DNA of 64,000 bases from Vicinamibacteria bacterium (GCA_963828745.1 CAWHFZ010000006.1:449549-513548); one strand, 5' to 3'. Numbered from the stretch's first letter, positions 4,205 to 59,803 are shown. A program made the numbers and translations. The notes: generated from the letters alone by a model not told the origin.

Positions 4205-4307
4205 ATAAAGAGGTTCAGCCGAGATCGTCCGCGAGCCGTGGAGTCGCACGCTCGCGGGCGAAGCAGCCGTTGAAAGTGCGCTAGGCAGACCTCACGGGTA
4301 TGACGGC

Positions 4308-9636: not shown

Positions 9637-9706
9637 CCCGCTCCCCTTCCCTGCAAACGAAGACGTGGTGTCGGCGGCGCCTCGCGCCAGCCGGTGGAGT
9701 TTTTCG

Positions 9707-14345: not shown

Positions 14346-14585
14346 TTACCGCCCCGGACCCCGGGCCGATACCTCCCGCAGCGTACGCCAGCTTTCCGAG
14401 GCCGCACGTTCGGCACGCTGCGCGCTGTCGCGCAGCCGTTCGGCGCCGGCGGCGATGTCCTCGACAAGCGGCTCGAGCCGGGCGCGCAAGCGGCGTCCGT
14501 CTTCGGTCAGAAGGAACCAGCTGGCGACGCCACCAACCGCCGCCCCGGCGACCAGCCCGATCAGCACCGCCGTCTTGTCACGCAT
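14346..14585 (-). CDS. YtxH-like small membrane-anchored protein
   Basis: 79-aa ORF with an N-terminal glycine-rich helix (LIGLVAGAAVGGVASWFL) followed by a charged helical tail. Its start overlaps the upstream gene's end by 8 nt. Confidence 0.55.
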   Translation of the reverse strand: MRDKTAVLIGLVAGAAVGGVASWFLLTEDGRRLRARLEPLVEDIAAGAERLRDSAQRAERAASESWRTLREVSARGPGR

Positions 14586-38825: not shown

Positions 38826-41772
38826 ATGCACAACGCACGTCGCGGCGTCCTGACGATGCTGACGATCGTATTGCTGTCGGGCGCGGCTTTCGCGCAGTCA
38901 CAGGCGACAACCGGTGTCATCGAGGGCACCGTGTCGGATTCATCCGGCGCCGTGCTGCCAGGCGCGACGGTCACCTTGAAGAATACCGGGACGAATTTCA
39001 CTCGCGACCTCGTGACCGATGCCGACGGCCGCTTCCGTGGCCTGCTGCTGCCTCTCGGGACCTACAAACTCACCGTCGCACTCGCTGGCTTCTCCAACTA
39101 CGAGCAGGACGGCATCGAGCTCGTGGTCGGCCAGACGGCGAATATCCCGATCATCCTGCAAGTCGGCGGTGTCGCGGAGAAGATTACGGTCACGAGCGAT
39201 TCGCCCGTCGTCGAGACCACGCGCTCCGAGGCTTCGACGCTGATCAATCAGCAGGCGCTTCGCGGCTTGCCCAACAACGGGCGCAACTTCCTCAGCTTCA
39301 TGCAGCTGACCCCGGGCGTCACGATCGTGCAGGGCCCGGACGGCGACGAGATCAGCGTCAACGGCCAGAAAGGGCATCACCAACAACATCTCGGTGGACG
39401 GCGCCGACTTCAACAATCCGTTCTTCGGCGAACAGCGCGGCGGCCAGCGTCCGGCGTTCACGTTCAATCAGGACGCGATCAAGGAGATGGTGGTCGTCGC
39501 GGACGGCGCGGCGCCCGAGTTCGGCCGCAGCGGATCCGGCTTCGTCAACGTCGTCACCAAGTCGGGCACCAACACGCCCGGCGGATCGGCGCACTTCTTC
39601 TTCAAGCACGACAATCTGTCCACGAAGAACTCCGCCGGCGAGAAGTTCCCGTTCGATCAGGAGCAGTTCGGCGCGACGCTGGGCGGCCCGCTCAAGAAGG
39701 ACAGGTTGTTCTACTTCCTGGCCTACGACGAGCAGCAGTTCGACCAGACCAAGCAGCTCGATCCGAACCGCATCGAGCCGCGCGTCGTCGACTTCTTCGC
39801 CGCCCTCGGCAGCCCCGACGAGAACGGCTCGATCGCCCGCACGAACGACGCCCGCGTGTTCCTCGGCAAAATCGACTCGCAGCTGTCGCAGAAGAACCTC
39901 TTGTCGGTGCGCTACAACTACACATGGAGTGAACAGCAGAACGGGACGTTCGACGTCGATTCGTGGGGACGAAGCGCCAACGCGGTCGAGCGCGACTTTT
40001 CCAACGCCGTGTCGGGCTCCCTCGCCGACGACGCTCTCGCTCGACCATGCTGCACGAGTTCCGATTCCAGTTCGCGCGAGAAGATCGGCCACGCCCCTAC
40101 GATGGCCCCGACATCTCGGGCCAGACGCGGCCGTTTCCCGACACGGCATTCGATTTCGGTCACGGGCTATCGTTTCGGTGAGCCGTTCTTCATTCCGGTC
40201 GACTATTACGACACGCGCGTGCAGTTCGTCGACAACCTGTCGTGGATCAAGGGGCGACACACGATCAAGGGTGGCTTCGAATTCAATCGCGTCAATTCGG
40301 TGCAGACCTTCGTCGGCTTCGCCAACGGCCGCTACATCTTCGGCAGCACTGACGGCTTCCTCAACTACCAGCAGTTCGGCCCCACCTACGTCGAATGCTC
40401 CAACGGCACGACGAGCCTCACCGGTTCGTGCCCTGCCGGCGCCAGCATCACCGGACCGCTCCTCCTGTTTCTGCAGCAGGCTGGCGTTGGCGGCCTCACG
40501 CGTCGAGGAGGCGGGCACGCAGTCGATCCCGCAGACCGAGCCGGCGCTTTTCATCCAGGACAAGTGGCAGCCGACCAGCAACCTCACGATTTCGTACGGG
40601 ATCCGCTGGGAGGCGCAGCTCCAGCCGGACATGATCACGCCGCGCGATCAGCTCTTCTACCGGGAGTTCCTCGACAACCCGGCCTTTCCTTCCGACGGCA
40701 CGATTCCGTCGGATACGAGCATGTGGCAGCCGCGCCTCGGCCTGTCGTGGGATCCGGGAGACGATGGCAAGCAGGTCATTCGCGCGAGTGCCGGTATCTT
40801 CTACTCGCGCATTCCCGGTCTGAGCCTCGCGAGCACGCGGTCGACCGACGGCACCCGCGGACAGTCGCTCTATCGTGACAGCACGTTCAACGGCTTCGGC
40901 GTGACGCCGCCGACATGGCCGAATCTGATCCCGGCCGACGCAGAATGCGACCCCGGATCATCCGGACGTGTTCGTCTTCGACAAGAACTTCCACAATCCG
41001 CGGACCTACTCCGGCACGATCAGCTACGAGCGCGAGCTGATCGCCAACCTCACGGCGTTCGCCACCTTCACGCACTCGAAGACGGTGCACGTGACCCGTT
41101 TCATCAATCGCAACGATGCGGTGTTCGGCAGACCGTTCAGCACCGGGCTTGGGCCGAACGACCAGAACGGCATCGGCGTGCTGACGACGGTGGAGAGCTC
41201 CGCGAAGGCGAAGTGGGACGGTCTCACGATCGGCATGACCAAGCGCTACGCGAACAGCTACCAGTTCCAGTGGAACTACACGCTGTCGCGCGACATGTCG
41301 GACGACGACAACGAGCGCGATCCGTTCAACTTCCGCTACGCGCGAGCGGACAACCTGGCTCCTGAATACAACTACTCGGACCGCGATCAGCGTCACCGGT
41401 TCAACGCCTGGCTGCTGGTCACCCACCGCGGTTTCGAGTTCAATACCCGCGTCTCGGCGCGCTCGGCGCAGCCTCAATCGGTCGGCAACACGCCGCAGGA
41501 TCGCATCCAGCCTGACGGCACGCATCATCAAGCGCAACACGCTGCGCAAGGACAACGAGTTCTTTACGTGGGACATCCGCGTCGCGCGGCCGTTCAAGTT
41601 CCGTGATTCCTCGGTGTCGATCGAACCGATCTTCGAGATCTTCAACCTGACGAACAGCAAGAACATTCGCCGTCCGGAAGTCACGAACCTGATCTTCAAC
41701 TTCGACGGCACGGTCCAGAACGGCCTCGGCGATCCTCGTCAGGCGCAGCTCGGGGTTCGGGTCAGGTTCTGA
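38826..41772 (+). pseudogene. TonB-dependent receptor with carboxypeptidase-regulatory-like domain, reading frame broken 6-7 times
   Basis: GAGGAGG precedes the ATG at 38826. The text starts with a signal peptide and GVIEGTVSDSSGAVLPGATVTL. It can be followed through track ORFs 38646.., 39394.., 39963.., 39929.. and 40968.., then a last frame ending ...PRQAQLGVRVRF-TGA at 41772. Frame changes are near 39372, 40028-40045, 40162, 40500, 40950 and 41522. Confidence 0.85.
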
Positions 41773-43991: not shown

Positions 43992-44933
43992 CTAGCCTGC
44001 GGCTCGCACCGGACGGAGAATCGGCTTCGTGGTGACGTGCTCGCGGCGGACTGGCGCACAGGAGCCAATCAATCGCAGGAACTCGAGGACGTAGTCGGTA
44101 CGTGCGAGTCCGCGCGGCACGACTGCCGACCATCCTCGCAGGAATCCACGAGGACCGATCCGCACGCCGCAGAGCCCGAGCGGCTGCAGGTATGGCTGGA
44201 CCACCCAGCGCGGAAGGACGCTGACGCCAAGGCCGGCGCGCACGAGCTCGAGGATCGCTTCGGTGAGCTGGACCTGGCGCCATACGGGTTGCACCCCGGC
44301 GGGTTGGAGCAGCGTGTTGTAGACGTAGCTCTCCTGCGGCGTGGCATACATGTACAACGTCTCGCCGGCCAGGTCCGTCGCACGGGCGTGCGGCCGGCTG
44401 GCCAGGCGATGGCCGGCCGGGGCCACGATCAGCATTTCGTCGCGGAACAGCGCTGTCGAGGCGAGCCGGCGGTCGCGGGCCGGGGACGTGACCACCGCGA
44501 GATCGAGCGTTCCGGCAAGAAGCGCCGCCAGCGGCTTGGTGGTCGCGTCGACCTCAATCCGCACGTCTACGCCCGGCGCCGCCTTCTGGAACTGGCGCAG
44601 CACCGCGGGCAACCAGTGGTAACACGTGTAGCACTCGGTCGCCACGCGAAGCAGCCCCTGCCGCTCCGTTGCGATGTCTCGCACTTGGGCTTCGGTGCGC
44701 GCGAGATCGGCGAGCACCCGTCCCGCGGTCTCGATCAGGTGCTGACCCGCGGCGGTCGGGATCATGCGGCGGCTGCGCCGCAGGAACAGTGGCGTGCCGA
44801 GGCGGTCTTCGATGTCGCGAAGCTGATGGCTCAAGGCCGATTGCGTCAGGTTCAGCTGGCCGGCGGCGGCGGTGAGGCTGCCCAGCGTCGCGACCGTCTG
44901 CACCAGCCGAAGGTGTCGGACTTCGAGCTCCAT
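43992..44933 (-). CDS. LysR-family transcriptional regulator
   Basis: Start at MELEVRHLRLV (44933). It has a wHTH (LNLTQSALSHQLRDIEDRLG) and a LysR substrate-binding domain. Confidence 0.9.
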   Translation of the reverse strand: MELEVRHLRLVQTVATLGSLTAAAGQLNLTQSALSHQLRDIEDRLGTPLFLRRSRRMIPTAAGQHLIETAGRVLADLARTEAQVRDIATERQGLLRVATECYTCYHWLPAVLRQFQKAAPGVDVRIEVDATTKPLAALLAGTLDLAVVTSPARDRRLASTALFRDEMLIVAPAGHRLASRPHARATDLAGETLYMYATPQESYVYNTLLQPAGVQPVWRQVQLTEAILELVRAGLGVSVLPRWVVQPYLQPLGLCGVRIGPRGFLRGWSAVVPRGLARTDYVLEFLRLIGSCAPVRREHVTTKPILRPVRAAG

Positions 44934-44970
44934 GGATCCGTCGCTCCCTGAGATGTCCGCGATGAGGCAC

Positions 44971-45627
44971 TCATCGCGACGCGATTCGGCGCACCTCGCA
45001 GCCGGCGCCGATGGTCGACGCCGAGTTCTTCGAGAGGGTGAACCGCGATCGGTCGCCCCATGCCACATCATCTGGCGCAAAGCCCGCAGCCATCAGTCCG
45101 GCGGCTGTATGCTCCGGCGATCGGAGCATGAAGTGGCCAATCTCGTGCGCCAGCCCGCGCCCCAGAATCCGCGGCAGGACACCTGCGCGAACAGCCGCCG
45201 GCCACGCCGTCAGCGGACGGCCGCCGAGACGCGCGTGAGCCGAAAGCCTCGAGGCGGCGGCCAGCGAGAGCTCGATCTCGCCAAGAGGACTGCCGTCACG
45301 AAAGCGAATGCGGCCCAGCGACGGCTTGCCGGCGGTCGTGTCCTGCGGCGGCAGGTTCGGCGAGATGAGCACTCGCACCCGCACTTCGAACCCCTCACAG
45401 CGGTCGGGACCATGCGCCCAGCAGAACGTCAGTCCGTAGGCGGCCCAGGTGGCCTCGACTTCGCGCGTGAACAGGTGCCATTCCCGATCCCCCCAGGCCA
45501 GCGGCGCACGGACGTCGATCGCAATCGCGATGGCACAGGACATGGCCGGACCCTCACCATTCGCCGGCTCGATCGGCGCCAGGGGCATCAACGGGACCAA
45601 CGCCAGCATCACGGGCCACGCCTTCAT
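44971..45627 (-). CDS. Small exported putative zinc metallopeptidase (HExxH)
   Basis: GAGGAGG precedes the ATG. A signal-like N-terminus is present, and [14 protein letters not shown] is followed by GLM. No family recognised. Confidence 0.55.
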
Positions 45628-45755
45628 GTCGTCCTCCTCGAGGCCATCGGCCCCCGCGGACGACTGTAGGCACTGGACTATATGAACACAAGCGCAATGA
45701 TTTTTGTATTTGGATGAATATCTCTCATATATTTGCCGGAGAGTGCAGGACGTGG

Positions 45756-45884
45756 TCTACCGACCCGGCGACCTATGCCGCGGTGTCTGCCATCCTCGCC
45801 GGCATCGCGCTGCTGGCAACCTACGTTCCGGCGCGACGCGCGTCGAGGATCGATCCGATGGTGGCGCTGCGGTCGGATGGCTAG
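45756..45884 (+). pseudogene. Orphan 3' remnant of an FtsX/ADOP permease gene
   Basis: Hand translation gives [45 protein letters not shown]. This matches the C-terminal signature of the intact ADOP permease at 27862. There is no upstream permease sequence, only an AT-rich patch. Confidence 0.6.
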
Positions 45885-47817
45885 GAGCTGTGCGTGTTCG
45901 CGACGAGCCGGACGATGCTCCTGAGCAGGTCGGCGATTTCCAGCGGCTTGGGCAGGTGATCGTGGAACCCGGCGGTCCGCGCCCGCGAGCGGTCCTCGTC
46001 GCCGACATACCCGCTGACGGCGATGGCGCGGAACGATGCTGCCGGATTCATCGAGCGCAGGCGCTCCAGCAGTGCATAGCCATCCTCGCCGGGCATGCCG
46101 ATGTCGGCGATGAGCACGTCCGGCTCGGTCGTCGAAAAGCTGTTCACTGCCTCTGCGGTTGACGATGCTGTCCGCACGGTGGCGCCGCGTGCCGTCAGCA
46201 ACAGTTGCAGCAGGTCTCGCGTGTCGCGATCGTCGTCCACCACCAGCACCTTGATCCTGGTCAGCGCGATACGCTCCTGATCAGGACCTTCCCCGACCGC
46301 GCTCACCACTTCGGTCGCCGACGCCAGCGGCAAGCTGACGCGGAACGTGCTGCCTTGCCCGGTCCCGGCACTGTCGGCAGCGACGGAGCCCTGGTGCGCC
46401 TCGACCAGGTGACGGACGATTGCAAGCCCGAGTCCAAGTCCGCCGTGCGAACGAGAGGTCGTGCTGTCGGCCTGAGCGAATCGCTCGAACACGCGCGGCA
46501 AGAATTGCTCGTCGATGCCGACTCCCGTATCCGCGATCTCGACAACGGCCGAGGTCCCGCGAACCGACAGCGATAGCTCGACGCGGCCGTTTGGCGAGGT
46601 GAACTTCATCGCGTTCGACAGCAGGTTCGTGATCACCTGCTGCAGCCGCTGTGGGTCACCGCGGACGGCGACGCTCTTGGAGGGAATGTTGGTGCTCAAG
46701 GTGATCCGACGATCCGCGGCCGCGGGGCGCAACATATCGGCGGCGGCGTTCACGACCTTCACAAGGTCGATGATGTGCATCTGCAGCCGCAGCTTGCCGC
46801 TGACGATCCGCGAGACGTCGAGGATGTCCTCGATCAGCCGCACTTGCGCAGCGGTGTTCCGCTCGATCACTTCGAGCGCGTATTGCACCTTGTCCGGAGG
46901 CACCTCGCCACGGCGAAGCAGATGTACCCACACCGAGAGTGCGTTCATCGGTGTGCGGAGTTCGTGCGACAGCATGGCGAGGAACTCGTCCTTCGCGCGC
47001 CCGGCACGATTCGCCTCGTCGTAGAGGCGGGCCATTTCCTGCTCGGCACGCTTGCGCTGCGTGATGTCCTCGAACAGGGCGAGCGCGCCCGGTGATCTCT
47101 CCGCTGGCATCGCGCAACGGCGCCGTCGAGAGGCTGACCGGGATCAGCTGTCCGTCACGACGCAGACGCTGCGTCTCGTAGCCGAGTCTCCGACTTCCCG
47201 GCCAGGGTCAACGCCAGCCGGGTGCCGAACTCCTCTTCGAATCCTGGCGGGACGAGGGGCAGCGGTTGTCCAAGCACCTCCTGCTCGGTCCACCCGAAGA
47301 TGCGTTCAGCGGCGGGACTCCAGCGAACCACGTACCCCCTGGCATCGGTGGCGACGACGCCGAGAGGGGACGCCTCGACAACCGCATGCAGGGTCGCATT
47401 GGCTTCGCGAACCGCCTCCTCCGCGCGCTTCAGGCGAAGCAACGCGTTGACGTTCGCGACGAGCTCGTCGGGATGGACCGGCTCGGTCAGGTAGCCGTCG
47501 GACCCGCCAGCCAGTCCGGTCAGCTTGCTCTCGAGGGTCACCGACGTCGCCGACATATGCACCACTAACACGTGTGCTGTCGCCGGATCCTGCTTGATCT
47601 GCCGGCACACCTCGAAGCCCGTAATGTCGGGCAGGTTGACGTCGAGCAGCACGAGCTGCGGGTGATGCGTGCGGACCAGCTGCAGCGCTTCCGATCCGGT
47701 CGTCGCTTCAAGGACGTCGAAACCGGCGCTCTTGAGGATGCGGCTGCGCGAGTATCTCCCTGGCGCGTAGTCGTCGACGTTCAGGATCGTTGCCGGCTGG
47801 TGTCCGGTCATGACCAT
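45881..47817 (-). pseudogene. Hybrid histidine kinase (REC-PAS-HisKA-HATPase-REC), last gene of the stressosome-type operon, with two frame breaks in the PAS segment
   Basis: The ATG at 47817 is 1 nt after the upstream stop. REC (ILNVDDY...LLDVNLPD) and PAS text run through track ORF 47155..47865, then a short third frame (YETQRLRRDGQLIPVSLSTAPLRDASGEITG), then ORF 45881..47110 (ALALFEDITQRKRAE, SHELRTPMNA, G-boxes, VLVVDDD...IADIGMPGEDG). Confidence 0.85.
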
Positions 47818-47818
47818 C

Positions 47819-49972
47819 TCAATGCACCTCGGCCACCCCTGCGCGTGCCAGGGCGCCGCGGACATGGATCGCCGCGTCCTGCCCCGCCAACAAATTCTTG
47901 GGCAGGATCGCCGCGGCTTCGCGTGTGAGAGCGGCCGTCTCGTCTGACGACAGATTCTTGGATGTCGCGATGATGACGGGAATGTCTCGGGTCACCGACG
48001 ACGCCTTCAAGGCGCTGAGCACGTCGCGGCCGGGCATCGAGGGCATAACTAGATCCAGGAAAATGACCGCGGGTCTTTCGTCTGCGGCGATTCGCAGTCC
48101 CGCCATGCCGTCGCGTGCTTCGAACACGGCAAACGACTCGGCCAGGAGCAACCGGCGGAGGACATATCGTATCCCCGGATCGTCGTCGATCAGCAATGCC
48201 GTCGTCGCCCCGGGCGCCGTTGTCAGTTCGCGCAGCCGTGTGAGCAGCCAGTCGCGCTCCACCGGCTTCACGGCATAGTCGTCGGCGCCAAGCGCGAGGC
48301 CCTTCCGCCGATCCTCGACGTTGCTGATAACGATGACCGGAATCGAAGACGTCAGGTCGCTGCCCTTCAATTCGGACAGAAATTTCCAGTTCTCCTCGCC
48401 CTGCATGACGATGTCGAGCAGGATGGCGGACGGCATCACGCGTTTCAGCCATTGCCGCGCCGCGGCCACGGACGACGCAGTAAGGATCTGGAACCGGGCG
48501 CCCCGAAGCATGCGGGCGTAGACCAGCTGCGCGTCGGGCGAATCTTCGATGATCAGGACCGGCAGCGACCCAGGCTCGGGACGGTATTCCACGGCGTCGA
48601 CCGCCGGCACGGCATTGGCCGCGGCCTCGCCGGGATATTGGACCGGAATCACTGCATAGAAGGTCGAGCCGACGCCGGGCGAGCTCCGGACGCCGAGCTC
48701 GCCGCCCAGTAGTTGCGCCAGCTTTCGCGACAGCGGCAGGCCCAGTCCGGTCCCGCGGACACGCCGCTGCGCGGGATTCTGGACTTGCGTGAATTCCAGG
48801 AAGATCTCCTCCTGATCCTCGGTCGCGATGCCGATGCCGGTGTCCGACACCTCGAATCGGACGGCACGCTCGGATGCGGAATAGACGGCCTTCACCCGAA
48901 CCTCGCCCCGTTCAGTGAACTTCAGGGCGTTCGAGATGAAGTTCCGGAGGATCTGCGACACTTTTGCCTCGTCGGTGTGCAGCGTCGGTACGCCCTCCGG
49001 CTCGTCGAAGACGAGCGAGATGGAGTCGCCGACGAGCAGCGGCCGCAGCATCCCGCGCAGAGCACCGAACAGGTCGCGAACCTCGAACTCGCCCGGGTGA
49101 ATCGCGATCTTGCCGGCTTCGACCTTCGCCAGGTCGAGCAGATCGTTGACGAGTTCCGAGAGATCCTGCGCCGACCGCTGCACGAGCGAGACCTGCGTCT
49201 CCTGTTCGCTCGTCAGCTCGCCATCGATCCTCTCGAGGAGCAGTCGCGTCAGCGCCAGCATCGAATTCAGCGGCGTCCTGAACTCGTGGCTCATGTTGGA
49301 GAGGAACTTCGACTTCATCTCGTCGGCGCGCCGGAGATGATCGGCCTTTTCGTCGAGCTCGGCGTACAGCGCGACGACGCCGCGATTGGTATCTTCGAGC
49401 TCGCTGTTCAGCCGTAAGAGCTCGTCCTGACGACGCCGGAGCTGATCGAGCGTTTCCAGCAGCTCGCGATTCTGCTGCTGAACTTCGGAGAGCATCGAGG
49501 GCGCGCGCTCCGCCACGAGACGCGACGAGATCTCGCCCAGGCGCTGCGGCGTCACGAGAATCGCCGCCGGCGGCAGCAGCTTGCCCATCGTCACGGTCGT
49601 GCCGCGTCCAGGCGCGGTCTCAATATGGAAGCGATCCATGAGGCGCCGCGAGCCGCTGATGCCGAGACCCATGCCCGTCACCGATCGGTAGGCTCCGGTC
49701 AGGATGTCGTTGAGAGTGGCGATGCCCGGCCCATCGTCCGAAATCGTGACCTGCAACACCTGAGGCGCGACCCGGCCCTCGATCGCAAACACGACGCGTC
49801 CTCCGCGCGCATAGCGGAAGGCATTGCGCGCGATCTCCGAGACGGCAGTCGCGATTCTCACCTGCTCCTGGGAGTCGAATCCGAGCAGCGACGCCAGATG
49901 CCGCGCGCGCTGGCGGGCGACGACGATATCGTCCTCGAGCTGGACGCGGAGCGTCAGGACCGGCAGGCTCAT
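47819..49972 (-). CDS. Hybrid histidine kinase with an N-terminal RsbT/RsbW-like GHKL domain, coiled coil, HisKA, HATPase and two receiver domains
   Basis: The N-terminal 130 aa resemble the RsbT-like protein upstream (ARNAFRYA..., DDGPGI, GMGLGISGSRRL). The H-box is SHEFRTPLNS, followed by G-boxes and two REC domains (LLDIVM.., FLDLVMPSMPG). Confidence 0.9.
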   Translation of the reverse strand: MSLPVLTLRVQLEDDIVVARQRARHLASLLGFDSQEQVRIATAVSEIARNAFRYARGGRVVFAIEGRVAPQVLQVTISDDGPGIATLNDILTGAYRSVTGMGLGISGSRRLMDRFHIETAPGRGTTVTMGKLLPPAAILVTPQRLGEISSRLVAERAPSMLSEVQQQNRELLETLDQLRRRQDELLRLNSELEDTNRGVVALYAELDEKADHLRRADEMKSKFLSNMSHEFRTPLNSMLALTRLLLERIDGELTSEQETQVSLVQRSAQDLSELVNDLLDLAKVEAGKIAIHPGEFEVRDLFGALRGMLRPLLVGDSISLVFDEPEGVPTLHTDEAKVSQILRNFISNALKFTERGEVRVKAVYSASERAVRFEVSDTGIGIATEDQEEIFLEFTQVQNPAQRRVRGTGLGLPLSRKLAQLLGGELGVRSSPGVGSTFYAVIPVQYPGEAAANAVPAVDAVEYRPEPGSLPVLIIEDSPDAQLVYARMLRGARFQILTASSVAAARQWLKRVMPSAILLDIVMQGEENWKFLSELKGSDLTSSIPVIVISNVEDRRKGLALGADDYAVKPVERDWLLTRLRELTTAPGATTALLIDDDPGIRYVLRRLLLAESFAVFEARDGMAGLRIAADERPAVIFLDLVMPSMPGRDVLSALKASSVTRDIPVIIATSKNLSSDETAALTREAAAILPKNLLAGQDAAIHVRGALARAGVAEVH

Positions 49973-51009
49973 TGGACGCGCCCTGGCGTCGCGCTCGTCG
50001 GTGGAGCGACGACGGCAATCACCGTGGCGTCGTCACGCGAGCGGCGATGATCGCGATAGAGAGCGGCGGCAATCAGCGACGGATGCCGGGTCGTCAGCCC
50101 CGGGTAATCCTCGATCTTCCAGTGCGTGGCGATTCCGTCGGAATGCAGCAGCAGCAGCCCGTCGTCCGGCCACGGATACGTCATCTCCTGAATCCGGCGG
50201 ACCTGGTGGCCGACGGTACCGTTGTGCGAGACGAGGTGACGTCCGCCGGCCGGCGAGATGATGACCGCCGAAATGTTGCCCACCCCGCAGTACCGCACCT
50301 CTTTCTGCGAGGCATCCAGCTCCACGGCGGCGGCGGCGGCGCCCCGGGTGTGCCGGATGCCGCCGTGGATACGGGACATGATCTCGCTGGGTCGCAGTCC
50401 ATCGAGACTACCGAATAGGTCGACGGCAGCATGCGACGCCTTCGCCGCGTCACCGCCGTGACCCAGGCCATCGGCGACGAGGAACTGCATGCCGCCGTTG
50501 CGGCGCTGAAATGCCCAGGCGTCGCCGCATTGCAATTCACCGGCGAGCGCCACACAGATGGCGCCGACTTCCAGTTGCGACGCCACCGGAGGGACGACGC
50601 GGGGGTCAGACGCGACACGGGCGAGTGCGATGGTCCCCTTGCCGGGCGACGAGAACACGTCGAAGAATTGCGACGCGCGCGCCACCGCGCCGAGCCCGGT
50701 GCCTGGACTGCTGGACGTGGTGTATCCATCGACCAGACACGCCCTCCAATTTGGCATCCCGGGACCACTGTCGAGGGCCAGCAGCTCCACTTCCCCAGAC
50801 GATGAGGCGTCTGCCGCTGCACGGACGATTAACTCGCCGCCGGATGCGTGCTTGAGCAGGTTGGTGGCGAGCTCCGTCGCCACCAGCGCCGCACGTCCTG
50901 CTGCCTCCTCGCCGAACCCCAGCCGGCCGGCGCACGTGCGCGCGAGCCGGCGCGCCTCCGCCACCTGGCTGGACTCGTGAATGGGGATCGACATGGATGT
51001 CAGGTCCAT
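49969..51009 (-). CDS. RsbT/RsbW-like ATP-binding domain fused to a PP2C/SpoIIE-type phosphatase
   Basis: The start MDLTSMSIP at 51009 overlaps the upstream gene by 10 nt. The N-terminal GHKL-like text is ELATNLLKHA, DSGPGM, GTGLGAV. The PP2C part reads GDAWAF...LVADGLGHG...LLLHSDGI...DDATVIAV. Confidence 0.85.
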   Translation of the reverse strand: MDLTSMSIPIHESSQVAEARRLARTCAGRLGFGEEAAGRAALVATELATNLLKHASGGELIVRAAADASSSGEVELLALDSGPGMPNWRACLVDGYTTSSSPGTGLGAVARASQFFDVFSSPGKGTIALARVASDPRVVPPVASQLEVGAICVALAGELQCGDAWAFQRRNGGMQFLVADGLGHGGDAAKASHAAVDLFGSLDGLRPSEIMSRIHGGIRHTRGAAAAAVELDASQKEVRYCGVGNISAVIISPAGGRHLVSHNGTVGHQVRRIQEMTYPWPDDGLLLLHSDGIATHWKIEDYPGLTTRHPSLIAAALYRDHRRSRDDATVIAVVAPPTSATPGRVQ

Positions 51010-51407
51010 CGCGCCACCGTGACCCGTGTCCCTTCGCCCACGCGCGAGACGATTTCGAACTCGCCGCACAGTCGCCGGGCGCCGCTCAGGCCCAATCCGA
51101 GGCCGCCGCCGGTGGTGTAGCCGTCGGTCAGCGCCAGGCCAATGTCCGGAATGCCGGGGCCCTTGTCTTCGAACGTCAACCGCAGACCCCTCTTGACGCC
51201 GTTGCTCAACGCCTCGATGGCTGCGGTTCCTCCGCCGCCGTACTGCAGGGTGTTCCTGGCGAGCTCGCTGGCGGCAGTCACGAGGCGCGTCTGATCGACC
51301 AGGCGGAAGCCCAGAGCGATCGCCCAGTCACGCACTTTCTGCCGCACGACGACCACATCGTCACCGCTTCGGATTTCGACAATCTCAGAGTTGCTGGTGG
51401 TCGCCAT
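51000..51407 (-). CDS. rsbT: RsbT-like anti-sigma-regulatory serine kinase (stressosome switch kinase homolog)
   Basis: 135-aa single GHKL domain (ELARNTLQYG, DKGPGIPD, GGGLGLGLSGARRL) immediately after two STAS genes. Confidence 0.85.
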   Translation of the reverse strand: MATTSNSEIVEIRSGDDVVVVRQKVRDWAIALGFRLVDQTRLVTAASELARNTLQYGGGGTAAIEALSNGVKRGLRLTFEDKGPGIPDIGLALTDGYTTGGGLGLGLSGARRLCGEFEIVSRVGEGTRVTVARWT

Positions 51408-51777
51408 CGCCCGGCTTCTGCGTCTGGATCGCGCCTCGCAGTAGCTCGATGCCCTTCTCCACGTTCAGGGCGGTTTTGACGCCGGGCAACGAGATGCCCA
51501 GCTCCACCAGCGTGATAGCGACCGCTGGCCGCATGCCGACGACGACGGTCTGCGCGTCCAGCACGCGTGACATCGCCGCGATGTTGCCCAGCATCCGTCC
51601 GATGAAGGAGTCCACGAGTTCGAGGGCGGAGATGTCGATCAGGACCCCGCGTGCGTGATGCTGCACGATCCGCTCGGTCAAATCGTCCTGCAGCGCCAGC
51701 GCCAGGCGGTCGTGCATATCGACTTGAATCGAGACCAGCAGGTGGTCGCCGATCTTGAGGATTGGGATTCGCTCCAT
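51385..51777 (-). CDS. rsbS: RsbS-like STAS-domain protein
   Basis: 130-aa STAS-only protein (IPILKIGDHLLVSIQ...VLIDISALELVDSFIGRML) containing the conserved Asp-Ser context. Confidence 0.85.
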   Translation of the reverse strand: MERIPILKIGDHLLVSIQVDMHDRLALALQDDLTERIVQHHARGVLIDISALELVDSFIGRMLGNIAAMSRVLDAQTVVVGMRPAVAITLVELGISLPGVKTALNVEKGIELLRGAIQTQKPGDGDHQQL

Positions 51778-51783
51778 ACCGTC

Positions 51784-52644
51784 TCAGGCGCCAGCCGTCA
51801 CCTTGCACACGGTCAGATTGCTCTTCTGGAGCGCGATGCGAAAGGCGTCGGCGAGCGTCGCCTTCGTGATCACCTGCCCGAGGTCCACGCCCAGATGCAC
51901 GATCGTTTGCGCGATCTGCGGACGGATACCGCTGATGATGCAGTCGGCGCCCATCAGTCTCGCCGCGGCCACCGTCTTCAACAGGTGCTGCGCCACCAGC
52001 GTATCCACCGTCGGGACGCCAGTGATGTCGATGATTGCGATGGCGGCCGACGTCTCGACGATTCTCTCCAGGAGGCTTTCCATCACCACTTGCGTGCGGG
52101 CGCTGTCGAGCGTCCCGATGAGCGGCAGGGCGAGGATGCCGTCCCACAATGCGACCACCGGTGTGGAGAGCTCCAACATCTCTTGCTGTTGCCGTGAAAT
52201 GACGTCTTCGCGGGCCTTCTGGTGCAGCTCGGTCGTGTGGAGACCCAGCTTGTCGAGCAGCACCGTGACGAGCCACGTCTGCCGGCCCAGACCGTCGGCG
52301 TCGTCCCGATACTCGTTGCGCAGCTGGTTGAAAATCGGCTGCTTCAGAGACAACACGAAGGTGGCCGTCTCGGAGGGCGAGATGCCATGCCGCGCGCGGG
52401 TTCGCGACAGGTCGCCGAGCATGTCGCGGATCTCGTCCCATTGGGTGCCGTCGATGTCGTCCAACTGACCCGACTGCACCGCATCCCGGAACAGGTTCAG
52501 GAACTGACGCGACCGGTCGCGGAGCTCTTTCTCGTCGTACTTGCTGTAGCCGCCCGCCAGCTGTAGTTTCAACCAGTCTGCCAGCAGGCTTGATTCATGC
52601 TTGCTCACGATCTCCGCGATCCGTGTGCCGTCGACTGTGCTCAT
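51784..52644 (-). CDS. rsbR: RsbR-like stressosome sensor protein (helical N-terminal domain plus STAS)
   Basis: 286 aa. The N-terminal ~140-aa helical domain begins IAEIVSKHESSLLADWLKL. The C-terminal STAS reads LSTPVVALWDGILALPLIGTLDSAR...IIDITGVPTVDT. Confidence 0.85.
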   Translation of the reverse strand: MSTVDGTRIAEIVSKHESSLLADWLKLQLAGGYSKYDEKELRDRSRQFLNLFRDAVQSGQLDDIDGTQWDEIRDMLGDLSRTRARHGISPSETATFVLSLKQPIFNQLRNEYRDDADGLGRQTWLVTVLLDKLGLHTTELHQKAREDVISRQQQEMLELSTPVVALWDGILALPLIGTLDSARTQVVMESLLERIVETSAAIAIIDITGVPTVDTLVAQHLLKTVAAARLMGADCIISGIRPQIAQTIVHLGVDLGQVITKATLADAFRIALQKSNLTVCKVTAGA

Positions 52645-52677
52645 TCGCGTGGCCCCCGCCCACAGGTAGGAACGATG

Positions 52678-52705
52678 ATCTTAGCTGGAAACGGTCCAGA
52701 CCCAA
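52678..52705 (-). promoter_or_regulatory. Candidate sigma-70-type promoter for the stressosome-type operon
   Basis: The minus strand reads TTGGGT-16 nt-TAAGAT, 34 nt upstream of the RsbR-like ATG. The spacer contains CTGGAccgttTCCAG. It rests on sequence resemblance only. Confidence 0.2.
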
Positions 52706-52762
52706 GTACTTGAAAAGTTTTGTGAATCGTGCCCGGCGGCGGGTGCGTCGAGCCGCAGGCCC

Positions 52763-53962
52763 TCAGAAGAGCGTCTGCTGCCGCGGGCGGCGACGGGCGC
52801 CGTCGAAGACCGTTCGGCCGCCGAATTCCTTGGAAATCTGGCGCTCGCGTGCGATCGCCGCACCGACGTCGGCCCGAGGGGCAAGGTGCGATTCGACCGC
52901 GGTAACGAATCGATCCAAGCGCTTCAGGCCATCGCGCTTCTCGAGCGCGTCGACCCTGGCGCGATCGAGGCTGCGCCGGAGGACGGCGATCGTGTCGTCG
53001 TAGGTGTGGAGCGGCACGGGGAACGGGTGGCCGTCCTTGCCGCCGTGCGCGAACGAGAAGCGCGCAGGATCCGCGAATCGCGTCGGCGTGCCGTGGATCA
53101 CTTCAGCGACGAGCGCCAGCGACTGCAGGGTCCGCGGACCGAGCTGCTCGACCAGCAGCAGCGACGCAAAATCGCGCAGGTCGCGCTCGTGGGCGACGGC
53201 CAGGACCGCGCCGAGCCGCTTCGCATCGACGTTGTGCGGGCGGACGTCATGATGATGAGGAAGGACCAGGTGTCTCACCTCCCGCAGCACCCGATCGGGA
53301 TTCTCGCGCGTCAGCGCAAGCATCGCGTCCTGGGCGGCCATCGCGTCGCGATCCACCAGGTTCTGAATCATCCCCTGGTGCTCACCGACAATGGCCGTGT
53401 GCGGCGAGGTGGTGAAGTCGCGGACCGATGCCGAATGCCAGTGGTACCGGCGCGCCGTGCGCTGCGCCTCGTTGAGTCCCTGCTGCACGACGGCCCACTC
53501 GCCGTCAGCGGTCACGACAAACGTGTGGAGATAGATCTGAAAGCCGTCCGCAATCGCGTTGTTGTCCACCCGTGCCGTGAGACGGCTGGTCTCGACCAGG
53601 GCGCTGCCGTTGAGACCGAGCCGATCGGACAGCGCGCGTAACTCGTCCGGCGTCCGCCGCGAGTGCCGGCCGCGGCCGCCACAGATATGGATGCCAAGCT
53701 CCGCCGATCTCGGGTTCAGGCCGCGCTTCAGCGCTCCCATCACCGACGTCGTAATGCCCGACGAATGCCAGTCCATGCCGAGCACCGAGCCGAACGCCTG
53801 GAACCAGAACGGGTCGCTGAGACGAGTCAGCAGCTCGGACCGTCCGTAGTGGACGACGACCGCTTCCGCAATCGCCGTGCCGAGCGTCGTCATTCTTGTC
53901 GCCAGCCAGGCGGGCACACGGCCGCCGTGCAGCGGCAAGTCAGCCGTGCCCGAGCGCTTCAT
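52763..53962 (-). CDS. DUF763-family protein
   Basis: 399 aa. The N-terminal TADLPLHGGRVPAWL...LSDPFWFQAFGSVLGMDWHSSGITTSV matches my memory of the DUF763 family signature. Confidence 0.7.
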   Translation of the reverse strand: MKRSGTADLPLHGGRVPAWLATRMTTLGTAIAEAVVVHYGRSELLTRLSDPFWFQAFGSVLGMDWHSSGITTSVMGALKRGLNPRSAELGIHICGGRGRHSRRTPDELRALSDRLGLNGSALVETSRLTARVDNNAIADGFQIYLHTFVVTADGEWAVVQQGLNEAQRTARRYHWHSASVRDFTTSPHTAIVGEHQGMIQNLVDRDAMAAQDAMLALTRENPDRVLREVRHLVLPHHHDVRPHNVDAKRLGAVLAVAHERDLRDFASLLLVEQLGPRTLQSLALVAEVIHGTPTRFADPARFSFAHGGKDGHPFPVPLHTYDDTIAVLRRSLDRARVDALEKRDGLKRLDRFVTAVESHLAPRADVGAAIARERQISKEFGGRTVFDGARRRPRQQTLF

Positions 53963-54044
53963 TCATTCATTCTCGCACTGTGACGATGGCGAGCGCCGCG
54001 TCGACACGCGGCCGGGGAAGGCCCGAAACCTAGATTTAACATCA

Positions 54045-55262
54045 ATGTCGCCTCAGCGTCGTGGCCCTCGGACAGCATCGAACCAGCTAAACGGTTTGGA
54101 GAGCCGCCCAGCACGTCGGGCCTGGAGGCCACAGTTGCGAGAAGGACTCATCACTAGAGGCGTTGCCGTCGCGATCGTGTGCGCCGGCTTGCTGTTCCAC
54201 GGCAGCGTGGTGTCGGCGCAGGTCACACCGGCGGCGGGATACACGCCCCCCGATGACACTCCCACGATCAAGGTCGGCGCCACGATCTTTGCCGACTACA
54301 CGTACCAAACAACCCCCGACGCAACAGACGCTGACGGCAACTCGGTCGATCCGAACCAGTTCAACGTCGCCCGCGCCTACATCAACGTCACCGGCAACAT
54401 CTCGCACCTGCTCGCGTTTCGCATCACTCCCGACATAGTGCGGCAAAGCGGCCTGGTGTCGCTCGCGACCGGCAACTCCGTGACCAGCGACAGCCTCGTA
54501 TACCGCCTGAAGTACGCCTATGCGCAGGTCAACATCGATGATTGGATGACCAAAGGCTCCTGGGTTCGCCTCGGCATGCAGCAGACGCCGTGGGTCGACT
54601 TCGAGGAGCAGATCTACCGCTACCGATTCCAGGGCCCGATTTTCATGGATCGTGAAACCTACCTCTCGTCGTCTGACGTTGGCGTCGCTTTTCACACCAA
54701 CTTCCCGAAGAACTTCGGCGACGTCATGGTCGGTATCTACAACGGCGAGACCTACTCGCGCCCGGAGGCCAACGATCAGAAAGCGTTCCAGATCCGCGGC
54801 ACGCTGCGCCCCTTGCCAATGAGCGCGCTCCTGCGTGGGCTTCGGTTTACCGGGTTCTACGACGCCGATCACTTCGTGAAGAATGGCGAGCGCGAGCGTT
54901 TCCTGGTCTCTCCCACGTTCGAGCACCAATACCTGAATGCGGCGTTTCAGTGGGTCGAGACCACGGATCAGATTTCTGCAGTCACCGGCACCAAGGTCGA
55001 GGGGGAGGGGTGGTCGTTCTGGGCCACGCCCCGGACCACAAAAGGCTTCGAGGGGCTGATTCGCTTCGACCACCTCGAACCGGACGACACGACGGACCGG
55101 AAACGCGACCGGGCGATCTACGGCATCGCCTATTGGTTGCCGCATCAAGGCACGGTGTCCGCGGCGTTTTTGCTGGATTACGAACAGGTCAAGAACAAGA
55201 ACTTCGCAGTGCCAATCCCGCGCCAAGAGCGGATTTTCCTGCATGCGCTCGTCAACTTCTGA
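54045..55262 (+). CDS. Outer-membrane beta-barrel porin upstream of pstS (putative phosphate-selective porin). The start is uncertain.
   Basis: It has a signal-like AVAIVCAGLLFHGSVVSAQ, alternating beta-strand pattern and a terminal ...HALVNF. It lies directly upstream of pstS. Confidence 0.65.
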   Translation: MSPQRRGPRTASNQLNGLESRPARRAWRPQLREGLITRGVAVAIVCAGLLFHGSVVSAQVTPAAGYTPPDDTPTIKVGATIFADYTYQTTPDATDADGNSVDPNQFNVARAYINVTGNISHLLAFRITPDIVRQSGLVSLATGNSVTSDSLVYRLKYAYAQVNIDDWMTKGSWVRLGMQQTPWVDFEEQIYRYRFQGPIFMDRETYLSSSDVGVAFHTNFPKNFGDVMVGIYNGETYSRPEANDQKAFQIRGTLRPLPMSALLRGLRFTGFYDADHFVKNGERERFLVSPTFEHQYLNAAFQWVETTDQISAVTGTKVEGEGWSFWATPRTTKGFEGLIRFDHLEPDDTTDRKRDRAIYGIAYWLPHQGTVSAAFLLDYEQVKNKNFAVPIPRQERIFLHALVNF

Positions 55263-55291
55263 TTGATTTCGACTTCACTGGAGCAGAGACC

Positions 55292-56329
55292 ATGAAATCG
55301 CTCGTTACGATGTCGCGCCGCGGAGCGCTGACGCTTGTTGTGGCGACTGTCAGCGTACTCGGCGTCTCGGCGCAGAACGTGCAGATCAACGGCGCCGGCG
55401 CCACGTTTCCCAACCCCATCTACTCGAAGTGGTTCGCCGAGTACAACAAGCTGCACCCGAACGTCGCGATCAACTACCAGAGCATCGGCTCGGGCGCCGG
55501 CATCCGGCAGATCACCAACCAGACCGTGTTCTTCGGCGCCACCGACGGCCCGATGACGAACGACCAGCTGCAGGGAGCGCCGGGAAAGATCCTGCACTTC
55601 CCCACCGTGCTCGGCGCGGTCGTACCGATCTACAACATCGAAGGCGTGAACCAGGAGCTCAAGTTCACCGGACCCGTCCTCGCCGACATCTTCCTCGGCA
55701 AGATCACCAAGTGGAACGATCCGGCCATCGCGAAGGCCAATCCTGGCGTCAATCTGCCCGCCACCGACATCACCGTGGCGCATCGCTCCGATGGCTCCGG
55801 CACGAGTTACATCTGGGTCGATTTCCTGGCCAAGGTCTCGCCCGAGTGGAAGCAGAAAGTGGGCGTCGCCACGTCAGTCAACTGGCCGGCCGGCGTCGGT
55901 GCAAAGGGAAACGAGGGTGTCTCTGGTCTCGTCAAGCAGACCCCCGGGGCGATCGGGTACGTGGAGCTGATCTACGCGCTGCAGAACAAGATTGCGTACG
56001 GCTCGGTTCAGAACGCCGCGGGTGAATTCGTCAAGGCGTCAGTACAGGCGGTGACGGCGGCGGCGGCGGTGGCGGCCAAGAGCATGCCGAAAGATTTCCG
56101 CGTCTCGATCACCAATGCGCCCGGTCAGGGCGTCTACCCCGTGTCGTCATTCACCTGGCTGCTGCTCTACGAGAATCCCAAGGACAAAGCCCAGGCGAAG
56201 CTCTTCGTCGACTTCCTGAAGTGGGCGCTCACCGACGGGCAGAAGTTTGCTACCGATCTGGGCTACGCGCCGCTGCCTGAAGAGGTCGTCAAGCTGGAGA
56301 TGGCGGTCATTCCGCAGATCAAGCTGTAG
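55292..56329 (+). CDS. pstS: Phosphate ABC transporter substrate-binding protein PstS
   Basis: Signal peptide followed by INGAGATFPNPIYSKW, GSGAGI and AHRSDGSGTS motifs. Confidence 0.95.
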   Translation: MKSLVTMSRRGALTLVVATVSVLGVSAQNVQINGAGATFPNPIYSKWFAEYNKLHPNVAINYQSIGSGAGIRQITNQTVFFGATDGPMTNDQLQGAPGKILHFPTVLGAVVPIYNIEGVNQELKFTGPVLADIFLGKITKWNDPAIAKANPGVNLPATDITVAHRSDGSGTSYIWVDFLAKVSPEWKQKVGVATSVNWPAGVGAKGNEGVSGLVKQTPGAIGYVELIYALQNKIAYGSVQNAAGEFVKASVQAVTAAAAVAAKSMPKDFRVSITNAPGQGVYPVSSFTWLLLYENPKDKAQAKLFVDFLKWALTDGQKFATDLGYAPLPEEVVKLEMAVIPQIKL

Positions 56330-56340
56330 GGATACACATC

Positions 56341-57312
56341 GTGCCGAGTACCCGCCTGCCGTTTCGACTCGGTGGAGATCTGAGCTTTCGGATCTTCACC
56401 GGGTTCTTCGCTCTGCTCTTGATCGTCATCGTGGTGGCGATCGGCGCGGAGCTGTGGCGGAACTCGGTGCTGTCGATTCAGAAGTTCGGGTTCAACTTCT
56501 GGGTGACCAGGATCTGGGACCCGGTTGCCGGGGAGTTCGGCGCGTTGCCCTTCATCTGGGGCACGCTCTACTCGGCGATTCTCGCCTTGGTACTGTCCAC
56601 GCCCGTCTCGTTGGGCATTGCTATCTTCCTGTCCGAAATGGCGCCCGGCTGGGCGCGCCAGCCGCTCGTCTTCCTCACCGAGCTGCTCGCGGCGATTCCT
56701 TCCATCGTCTACGGTGTCTGGGGCGCCTTCGTCCTCGCGCCCTGGGTCCGCTCGCTGCAGGTGCACATGCCGGATGCGTTGAGAGCGACACCGTTTTTCA
56801 GTGGTCCCCCCCTCGGCTACGGGATGCTGGCGGCCGGGTTGATTCTCTCGGTCATGGTCATCCCCTACTCCGCCTCGGTAGCCCGCGAAGTATTGAAGGC
56901 TGTGCCGCTGGCGCAGCGCGAGGCCGCGTATGCCCTCGGAGCGACCCGCTGGGAAGCGATCCGGGCCGCGCTTTTCTTCGCGCGCACCGGCATCGTCGGC
57001 GCCGTTATGCTGGGTTTCGGCCGCGCACTGGGCGAAACAATGGCGGTCACCATGGTGATTGGCAACAGTCCGCAAGTCTCGTGGTCGCTGAACGCACCGC
57101 AATACACGATGGCCGCCGTCATCGCCAACGAGTTCACGGAAGCCGCCGATGACCTGTACCTCAATGCGCTCGTCGAGATCGGGCTCGTGCTGTTCGCGAT
57201 CACGCTGGTCATCAACATGTGCTCACGTCTGCTGATTATGAGCATGACCCGGTCGCGCCGGCCGAAGGCACAGGACGAGGCACCCGTCCTGCCGGAACCG
57301 AAGGCCGCATGA
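56341..57312 (+). CDS. pstC: Phosphate ABC transporter permease PstC
   Basis: GTG start. It has six helices, EAAYALGATRWE in the EAA loop, and its operon position. Confidence 0.95.
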   Translation: MPSTRLPFRLGGDLSFRIFTGFFALLLIVIVVAIGAELWRNSVLSIQKFGFNFWVTRIWDPVAGEFGALPFIWGTLYSAILALVLSTPVSLGIAIFLSEMAPGWARQPLVFLTELLAAIPSIVYGVWGAFVLAPWVRSLQVHMPDALRATPFFSGPPLGYGMLAAGLILSVMVIPYSASVAREVLKAVPLAQREAAYALGATRWEAIRAALFFARTGIVGAVMLGFGRALGETMAVTMVIGNSPQVSWSLNAPQYTMAAVIANEFTEAADDLYLNALVEIGLVLFAITLVINMCSRLLIMSMTRSRRPKAQDEAPVLPEPKAA

Positions 57313-58160
57313 ATCTCGACTTCCGCCGCCGCGTGCTCTCGGCCGCCGTCACCGGCTTCTGCGGCCTGTCGATCCTGGTGGCGCTGGTCCCGCTCGGACT
57401 GATCTTCTTCTTCGTCATCAGCCAGGGGATCCGCGCACTGAACTTCGAGTTCTTCACGAACATGCCGCAGCCGGTTGGCGAGCCTGGCGGCGGCATGGCC
57501 AACGCCATCGTCGGGTCGCTCATCGTGACCGGGATCGGCGCCATCTTCGCCATTCCGATCGGGATCCTCTGCGGCGTTTACGCGGCGGAGTACGCAGGAT
57601 CGCGTCTGGCTTTCGCCGTCCGCTTTGCCGCCGACACGCTGAACGGCGTGCCCTCGATCGTCATCGGCGTCTTCATCTACAGCCTGGTCGTGCTGCCGAT
57701 CCGTCAGTTCACGGCGGTCGCCGGTGGTGTGGCGCTGGGCGTCATGATGATCCCGATCATCGCCCGCAGCACCGAGGAACTGCTGCTGCTCGTGCCGGGT
57801 GGTCTTCGCGAAGCGTCGCTCGCCCTCGGCGCCACCCGCGGCCGCGCGATGTTCAGCGTGATTCTGCCAGCCGCCTTCCCCGGAATCGTCACCGGGATCA
57901 TGCTCGCCCTGTCGCGTATCGCTGGCGAGACGGCGCCCCTCCTGTTCACGGCGCTCAACAATCGCTTTTTCTCGACGCGGCTGGATCAGCCGATCTCGAC
58001 GTTGACGGTGCAGGTCTACACCTACGCGAACTCTCCGTACGATGATTGGCACCGGCAGGCCTGGGCAGGCGCGCTGGTGCTGGTGTCGATCGTGCTGCTC
58101 TGCTCGCTGTTGGCGCGCGTGGCCACGCGCCGACTCGAACGATTGCAGGTGGGACGCTGA
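57309..58160 (+). CDS. pstA: Phosphate ABC transporter permease PstA
   Basis: The ATG overlaps the pstC stop (ATGA). The EAA loop reads [12 protein letters not shown]. Confidence 0.95.
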
Positions 58161-59017: not shown

Positions 59018-59029
59018 GAGAGACGCGCC

Positions 59030-59717: not shown

Positions 59718-59803
59718 GCCTCCGCCTGCTGGAGTGCGCAATTCCATGTAGCCCGACGCCATTCGGCTCATGATCCGCATCCGCCGTGACGATTACGCGG
59801 CGG

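Follow-up and report, generated by a model that had tools for sequence, protein, structure and literature searches.

A 64,000-nucleotide (nt) stretch of DNA from a Vicinamibacteria bacterium (GCA_963828745.1, CAWHFZ010000006.1:449549-513548; hereafter the window) carries on its minus strand, at 45881-52644, a cluster of six genes that encode, in order, RsbR, RsbS, RsbT, an RsbT-like domain fused to a PP2C phosphatase, an RsbT-like domain fused to a hybrid histidine kinase and a REC-PAS hybrid kinase. A preliminary description had read this cassette as a stressosome-type RsbR-RsbS-RsbT module wired to a PP2C fusion and two hybrid histidine kinases with no sigma-factor partner, and the analysis presented here supports that reading. 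We propose, at a probability of about 0.55, that the cassette specifies a stressosome scaffold on which free RsbT and both fused RsbT-like domains dock, that the state of this scaffold gates the phosphatase and a His-Asp relay, and that two frame breaks found in gene 6 are assembly errors. Throughout, free RsbT is denoted T, the RsbT-like domains of genes 4 and 5 are denoted T' and T'', and the kinases encoded by genes 5 and 6 are denoted K5 and K6.

RESULTS

Gene Layout and Conservation of the Cassette

The six genes are closely packed, and the junctions given in the preliminary description proved exact: a 6-nt gap, overlaps of 23, 10 and 4 nt, and a 1-nt gap before 47817. The first five open reading frames (ORFs) listed below were all found on the minus strand where that description had placed them, and a Pfam profile search, our means of domain identification, reproduced every domain call. 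Its list of six genes held for genes 1-5 but failed for the sixth, which spans 1937 nt (45881-47817), not a multiple of 3, and falls into two ORFs. The genes are as follows (lengths in amino acids, aa):

51784..52644, minus strand: RsbR-type co-antagonist, 286 aa, RsbRD_N sensor plus STAS (Pfam RsbRD_N 1.5e-25, STAS 2e-13)
51385..51777, minus strand: RsbS-type single-STAS scaffold protein, 130 aa (Pfam STAS 3e-8)
51000..51407, minus strand: RsbT-type stand-alone GHKL serine kinase, 135 aa (Pfam HATPase_c 9e-13, HATPase_c_2 3e-5)
49969..51009, minus strand: T' (about residues 1-145) plus RsbX-type PP2C, 346 aa from the ATG at 51009 (Pfam HATPase_c_2 4e-8, SpoIIE 4e-11)
47819..49972, minus strand: hybrid histidine kinase, 717 aa, with T'' (1-132), helix 160-246, HisKA, HATPase_c and two REC domains (Pfam HATPase_c_2 9e-16)
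45881..47817, minus strand: REC-PAS-HisKA-HATPase-REC hybrid kinase, broken, ORFs 47155-47817 and 45881-47110 (three-frame translation)

Relatives of gene 4 occur in at least 576 species-representative genomes. We profiled 82 loci, namely the best 80 of these (one genome per species) together with L003 and L004, and annotated them with profiles made from the window's own domains. The preliminary description had called for a comparison of gene order across related genomes; the complete order R-S-T-(T'-PP2C)-(T''-HisKA-HATPase-REC[-REC])-(REC-PASn-HisKA-HATPase-REC) was found in 66 of the 82 loci, which represent more than 10 phyla, and the incomplete loci were mostly interrupted by contig ends. 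Across cassettes the phosphatase and kinase genes typically overlap by 4 nt. The loci derive from Cyanobacteria (Nostoc, Calothrix, Leptolyngbya), Planctomycetota (Singulisphaera acidiphila DSM 18658, Paludisphaera, Aquisphaera), Acidobacteriota, Gemmatimonadota, Chloroflexota, Myxococcota, Nitrospirota, Rokubacteria, Binatia, Bacteroidota, Armatimonadota, Actinomycetes and Proteobacteria (Methylobacter, Aquabacterium). A recurrence of this kind is more than chance would produce. The chain had been presented as a feature of an Acidobacteria-like genome, a view that did not survive the comparison, as the cassette spans many phyla and its proteins already carry generic database names. Among the matches listed, the nearest named relatives of the window proteins are from metagenome-assembled genomes of Acidobacteriota and Vicinamibacteria, which agrees with the Acidobacteria-like host of the preliminary description but does not amount to a taxonomic assignment.

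When every ORF lying up to 4 kb from either end of the 66 complete cassettes was clustered, no conserved seventh gene emerged, and the clusters amounted to generic PAS/histidine-kinase paralogues and synteny specific to Nostoc. The absence of a sigma-type partner was borne out in that RsbU_N, RsbV/RsbW and sigma factors were found neither in the cluster by Pfam nor as conserved neighbors of the 66 loci, and no flanking regulator was conserved beside them either. Within the window, no ORF that was scanned encodes a sigma-factor protein, RsbU_N or HPt; the absence of HPt from the cluster and these ORFs agrees with the preliminary description, several large ORFs that look by eye like enzymes or transporters lying outside the scan. 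A tblastn search of the window with the cluster's own domains gave no further STAS, RsbT-like or PP2C domain beyond the cluster.

These data bear on the simplest alternative, that the two kinases merely lie beside an RsbRSTX module and are outside its pathway. Distant phyla retain the arrangement, at 66 of 82 loci, with the typical 4-nt junction between phosphatase and kinase, the kinase itself bears an RsbT paralogue, and the other flanking genes lack conservation. Mere adjacency is strongly disfavored, and we assign it a very small probability.

A few loci depart from the common layout. In L004 (10001-14145) RsbT is fused to T'-PP2C in a 473-aa protein, the kinase is without T'', and a REC-HWE_HK protein and a lone REC follow. 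In L055 and in the Methylobacter locus L057 the kinase REC domains are encoded as separate genes.

RsbR, RsbS and Free RsbT

The placement of the first two proteins in the RsbR and RsbS families stands, their best solved-structure matches being stressosome RsbR and RsbS. For RsbR these are the V. vulnificus (7o0i, 1.8e-35) and Listeria (7b0u, 1e-31) stressosome proteins, and for RsbS they are the Listeria (6qcm, 3e-31), B. subtilis (6jhk, 1e-30) and Moorella MtS (2vy9, 2e-26) proteins. Conservation was examined in alignments of 67 sequences per class, comprising 66 orthologues from complete cassettes and the window copy. The candidate phosphorylation sites of RsbR, Ser-181 (in LDS) and Thr-215 (in VDT), which we take to match Thr-171 and Thr-205 of B. 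subtilis RsbR, are invariant in 67 of 67 sequences. The same is true of the candidate site Ser-57 in the VDSF motif of RsbS, where the Asp-Ser context noted earlier is present as V55-D56-S57-F58; the conserved serine of B. subtilis RsbS is Ser-59. Across phyla, most positions of RsbS and of the STAS half of RsbR show at least 90% conservation. Free RsbT keeps the N, G1 and G2 boxes, which are invariant across orthologues, and its clade profile matches SpoIIAB at 4e-9; against solved structures it returned no chain named RsbT and one histidine-kinase match at E<=0.001. The set of components characteristic of a stressosome RSTX module is therefore found here, with RsbR, RsbS, RsbT directly after rsbS, and an RsbX-type PP2C in the operon.

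We considered whether these proteins might instead form a simple partner switch with no megadalton stressosome, in which RsbR and RsbS would be soluble STAS antagonists of three kinase domains, as SpoIIAA is of SpoIIAB. Complex assembly cannot be read from sequence, and among solved structures T and T'' come nearest to SpoIIAB and RsbW, which belong to simple switches. However, the STAS domains of RsbR and RsbS most resemble proteins whose structures come from stressosome particles (7o0i, 6qcm and 7b0u), their extreme conservation across phyla fits many packing contacts, and the R-S-T order with an RsbX-type phosphatase is a hallmark of stressosome modules. We regard the simple switch as improbable. 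The high STAS conservation is compatible with a pseudo-icosahedral, RsbT-sequestering particle of about 1.5-1.8 MDa, although it is not proof of one.

An NCBIfam scan of the six proteins gave no model above cut-off, only sub-threshold matches to YtvA, SpoIIAB, RsbA-type and generic histidine-kinase models, and as no model reached the cut-off none of the six proteins receives a curated name.

Two Further RsbT-like Domains in Genes 4 and 5

Gene 4 joins T' to a phosphatase. Its longest ORF extends to 51069, and its PP2C half matches the stressosome phosphatases MtX (3zt9, 2.7e-15) and RsbX (3w40, 7.8e-12). The N, G1 and G2 boxes of T' and the metal-binding motifs of the PP2C are invariant in 39 homologues. 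This architecture (HATPase_c_2 plus SpoIIE) is found in at least 7960 protein clusters at E<=1e-10, and proteins of the gene 4 type are named "ATP-binding SpoIIE family protein phosphatase" by NCBI.

In gene 5, T'' occupies the position that is normally held by the sensor domain in a histidine kinase. Fold comparison used Foldseek and an AlphaFold model of residues 1-320 (mean predicted local distance difference test score 85.5). The model contains an alpha/beta domain at residues 1-132, the nearest folds to which are those of SpoIIAB and RsbW (target-normalised TM-scores, 0.77-0.86); the matched entries contain these kinases in complex with SpoIIAA, sigma F or RsbV. The T'' clade profile matches SpoIIAB at 3e-8, and Glu-46, Asn-50, Asp-79, Gly-81, Gly-83, Gly-102 and Gly-104 are invariant. 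From T'' a continuous modeled helix of 87 residues (160-246) leads into the phospho-acceptor helix with His-229, the HisKA acceptor, which is invariant; the REC acceptors are Asp-520 and Asp-640, and the acceptor aspartate is conserved wherever a REC domain aligns. Between T'' and HisKA the stretch ELEDTNRGVVALYAELDEKA (residues 191-210 of gene 5; window 49340-49400, minus strand) is invariant. It resembles a signaling helix, lies inside the modeled helix 160-246 and is covered by no Pfam family. An exact database look-up of the gene 5 protein returned no record.

When the three classes of RsbT-like domain were compared, the nearest neighbor of every one of the 67 sequences in each class belonged to the same class. 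Within classes the mean identity is 68% for T and 52% and 56% for the other two, as against 25-36% between classes; T, T' and T'' are three separate orthologous clades. The N, G1 and G2 ATP-binding boxes are kept by all three classes, and T' and T'' are apparently able to bind ATP.

If T' and T'' belong to the pathway, how might they be engaged? We consider docking on the scaffold the likeliest answer because both are of the SpoIIAB type with intact catalytic motifs and the cassette supplies no other STAS partner. A classical release mechanism would have only free RsbT bind the scaffold and, once freed on stress, pair with or phosphorylate T' and T'', which would then act as receptors replacing RsbU_N. 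Release is the established model for B. subtilis (PMC12143880), T lies nearer to T'' (36% mean identity; 41% in the window) than T' does, and SpoIIAB and RsbW, the nearest folds to T'', are known to act as dimers. Yet T' and T'' keep all of their ATP-binding and catalytic motifs, for which a pure docking domain would have no need, RsbR and RsbS are the only STAS partners that the cassette offers to kinase-type domains, and the pairing of T with T'' is hypothetical. The retained catalytic motifs mildly favor docking over release, and we judge release to be rather unlikely.

Gene 6 and Its Frame Breaks

The PAS domain of gene 6 begins in one frame, continues in a second and ends in the third. 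The window was compared with L001, a contig of another public assembly that is 96% identical to it over 16 kb, and two bases account for the breaks:

47185, minus strand: 1-nt insertion inside the gene 6 PAS domain, the base being absent from L001 (GAGAC-CGGC versus GAGACTCGGC)
47090, minus strand: 1-nt insertion at the end of the gene 6 PAS domain (GGG in the window versus GG), absent from L001 (ACC-GGCGCG versus ACCGGGCGCG)

Dropping both bases yields an uninterrupted REC-PAS-HisKA-HATPase-REC protein of 644 aa with a complete PAS domain (Pfam 7e-18). Orthologues of gene 6 are intact, for example at 635 aa in L003, and the acceptor His-284 is conserved. Third-position GC content is gene-like on both sides of the breaks (0.81 and 0.83). 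Elsewhere in the window, two TonB-receptor-like genes at 38889-41769 (plus strand) and 1-3095 (minus strand), with CarboxypepD_reg and OMP_b-brl_4 matches, are split over 3-5 frames, whereas a paralogue at 9335-12529 is intact; the split genes suggest an assembly with many single-base insertion or deletion (indel) errors. Because L001 has neither extra base and other genes of the window are also frame-broken, we read the gene 6 frameshifts as probable assembly errors. Programmed frameshifting was rejected on the ground that both bases are absent from the near-identical L001.

Alternatively, gene 6 could be a true pseudogene with two real frameshifts, in which case signaling would end at gene 5 or be rerouted from it. 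The assembled window does contain two +1 breaks within 95 nt, and the sole comparison contig is error-rich. Set against this, neither insertion is found in a contig of 96% identity, codon bias is gene-like beside the breaks and a full PAS domain is regained on removal of the two bases, one of the insertions extends a G run, and the frame-split TonB-receptor-like genes point to assembly noise in the same window. We regard a real pseudogene as improbable.

The N-terminal REC domain of gene 6 (47428-47817, minus strand) keeps its acceptor Asp-59 and the acidic pocket. At the position of CheY Lys-109, however, the 67 sequences have Gln in 33, Glu in 12, Asp in 6 and Lys in only 3. This domain may be an atypical or pseudo-receiver rather than an ordinary phospho-acceptor.

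The domains of K5 and K6 were checked in 39 orthologues of each (78 in total). Neither Hpt nor RsbU_N was detected among them, and GGDEF and EAL were absent from genes 5 and 6 and from the 39 plus 39 orthologues, with a single HD domain in 1 of the 39 K6 orthologues. The likely carrier of that HD match is the protein that follows the kinase in L022 (12803-15790). The features expected of a hybrid kinase, a HisKA histidine, HATPase_c and a REC aspartate, are present, and no HPt or terminal output regulator was found locally; these may lie elsewhere.

Neighboring Genes and Other Features of the Window

The preliminary description had also stated that the window encodes no DNA-binding output. This was incorrect, as LysR, NarL/LuxR-type and NtrC-type regulators are encoded there. 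The regulators and one further kinase, none of which recurs beside the cassette in other genomes, are as follows:

43992-45080, minus strand: LysR regulator, on the same strand as the cassette and downstream of it
59786-60475, plus strand: NarL/LuxR-type response regulator, after pstSCAB-phoU
14578-16050, minus strand: NtrC-type sigma-54 activator, another signaling gene, unrelated to the cassette
22935-24389, minus strand: DUF4118-PAS histidine kinase, likewise unrelated to the cassette, with a 4-nt overlap with an MgtC/DUF4010 membrane protein gene (pair 21682-24389)

A DUF763 gene (52763-53962, minus strand; Pfam 1.5e-128) is co-directional with the cassette and lies 118 nt upstream of rsbR; it is shared with L001 and does not adjoin the cassette in other lineages. 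Between the cassette and the LysR gene is an ORF of 218 aa (44971-45627, minus strand) with gene-like codon bias, a hydrophobic N terminus and a HEIGH zinc-protease-like motif, which has no Pfam or NCBIfam match. Diverging from the DUF763 gene, the plus-strand region 53877-60475 holds a 461-aa ORF followed by pstS, pstC, pstA, pstB, phoU and the NarL/LuxR-type regulator; the 461-aa protein has no Pfam match, ends in ...HALVNF and has the look of an outer-membrane porin. The DUF763 gene, the LysR gene, the HEIGH-motif protein and pst-phoU/NarL were each considered as cassette parts and rejected, none being a conserved neighbor of the 66 complete loci.

Further away, an ORF with a PEP-CTERM motif (3808-4284, plus strand) overlaps a tRNA-Leu(TAA) (4117-4205, minus strand), the only RNA family match in the window. 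At 61964-64000 (plus strand), running off the window end, are repeats of about 90 aa (...GTGTPAG.AEFFDGATSLG...ASHSITAKYLG...) that by eye suggest a tandem Ig-like surface protein.

DISCUSSION

Proposed Mechanism

In the mechanism that we favor, RsbR and RsbS would form a stressosome-type scaffold by analogy with those of B. subtilis, Listeria, Moorella and Vibrio. On this scaffold RsbT would phosphorylate Ser-57 of RsbS and Ser-181 and Thr-215 of RsbR, and the RsbX-type PP2C of gene 4 would strip these phosphates and reset the system, as its counterparts do in the known pathways. T' and T'', judged by fold and gene context, may dock on the same STAS surface of RsbR and RsbS as RsbT does. Docking of T' would tether the phosphatase to its substrate, such that the phosphorylation state of the scaffold decides phosphatase recruitment, and the same state would decide whether the RsbT-like domain of the kinase is held or released. 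The resulting change could travel along the long, conserved helix 160-246 to His-229 and toggle autophosphorylation. Phosphate would then pass to the REC domains of gene 5 itself, to the N-terminal REC of gene 6, or to both, with the PAS domain of gene 6 perhaps adding a second input and the final acceptor, an HPt protein or a response regulator, presumably encoded outside the cassette. A more specific form of this proposal, which we advance only tentatively, is that the three paralogous kinase domains, namely free RsbT and those attached to the phosphatase and to the histidine kinase, compete for one scaffold and that this competition is the allosteric input of the phosphorelay.

Several observations weigh against the mechanism as a whole. 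It is fold and gene context that suggest docking of T' and T'' on RsbR and RsbS, and a megadalton icosahedral complex is not demonstrable from sequence. Three hybrid-type REC domains without an HPt leave the path of the phosphate ambiguous, and the N-terminal REC of gene 6 is without the conserved lysine in about 95% of orthologues. L001 is itself noisy, with 83 indels relative to the window, and real frameshifts in the strain are possible. In 44800-54100 a consensus scan gave no match to a sigma-70-type promoter; it gave just two terminator-like matches, both within coding sequence and not in excess of the number obtained with shuffled sequence.

Comparison with Known Systems

The cassette shares with the B. 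subtilis and Listeria pathway the R-S-T order, an RsbR composed of a sensor and a STAS domain, a single-STAS RsbS with its serine, a small GHKL RsbT and an RsbX-type PP2C. Unlike that pathway, it is without RsbU or RsbU_N, RsbV/RsbW and a sigma factor, its phosphatase is encoded immediately behind rsbT and has an RsbT-like domain of its own, and its output is a histidine-kinase relay. The resemblance to SpoIIAB-SpoIIAA and RsbW-RsbV is that T and T'' match kinases whose STAS partners have a phosphorylatable serine after an aspartate; those kinases, however, are free and also sequester a sigma factor, whereas the cassette domains T' and T'' are joined to a PP2C or a histidine kinase.

In Vibrio, too, a stressosome module (RSTX with D1/D2) occurs without sigma B and has a sensor kinase directly after it, with which it is co-regulated (PMC9237108, PMC10014275, PMC4976288). 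There, the route from RsbT to the downstream kinase is described as unresolved, an RsbT-D1 interaction not having been detected, and RsbX is described as a single-domain protein (PMC9237108), unlike the T'-fused RsbX of the cassette. The Vibrio RsbR is a haem globin-coupled sensor, whereas that of the cassette has RsbRD_N and not a protoglobin, and the Vibrio output is tied to cyclic di-GMP, whereas genes 5 and 6 are without GGDEF or EAL. The cassette is not a cyclic di-GMP module of the Vibrio type and has in common with it only the layout of RSTX followed by a sensor kinase. No RsbT-like domain on VvD1 is reported in the Vibrio stressosome literature that we searched.

The Moorella MtR-MtS-MtT-MtX-MtG system likewise uses a stressosome module to drive a non-sigma effector, and genes 2 and 4 have MtS and MtX among their nearest relatives of solved structure. 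Its output is an RsbU_N-GGDEF protein (PMC9237108, PMC10014275, PMC12143880), and PMC12143880 cites RsbU_N-histidine kinases in proteobacterial stressosome operons (Quin 2012, Heinz 2022). In these Moorella and proteobacterial systems RsbT is received through the four-helix RsbU_N domain, whereas the cassette kinase bears an RsbT paralogue instead. B. cereus RsbK-RsbY, a hybrid kinase acting on a REC-PP2C, and M. tuberculosis Rv1364c, a PP2C-kinase-STAS fusion, are similar in that PP2C, GHKL serine kinase and two-component parts are fused or wired to one another for stress signaling. Both differ from the cassette in domain order and logic, and neither has an upstream RsbR-RsbS-RsbT. A further distinction from the surveyed stressosome modules is that in the cassette a second hybrid kinase always follows the first.

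The notion that RsbRST(X) modules couple to varied outputs, two-component systems among them, is credited to the 2005 survey of Pane-Farre et al. Our full-text literature search found no description of RsbT-like domains fused to RsbX or to a kinase, although a mention in that survey is possible, and it found no experimental study of the six-gene cassette. The cassette class is apparently an uncharacterised variant of the RsbRSTX-plus-two-component design, of which the window copy is an ordinary member, very widespread in kind and recovered here in a noisy metagenome assembly of what looks like an Acidobacteriota genome.

How stressosomes signal without sigma B is an open question, and the cassette suggests an answer that can be tested, since an RsbT-like domain is built into both its downstream kinase and its reset phosphatase. 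Cultured carriers, such as Singulisphaera acidiphila DSM 18658, Nostoc linckia NIES-25, Calothrix sp. NIES-4105 and Methylobacter psychrophilus Z-0021, could serve as models. If competition of the three kinase domains for one scaffold is true, it would be an undescribed coupling of Ser/Thr partner-switching to two-component signaling in hundreds of species from more than 10 phyla and would suggest how stressosomes that lack sigma B transmit their signal. Since the cassette is kept from Nostoc to Planctomycetes, Acidobacteria and methanotrophs, such a mechanism would apply widely.

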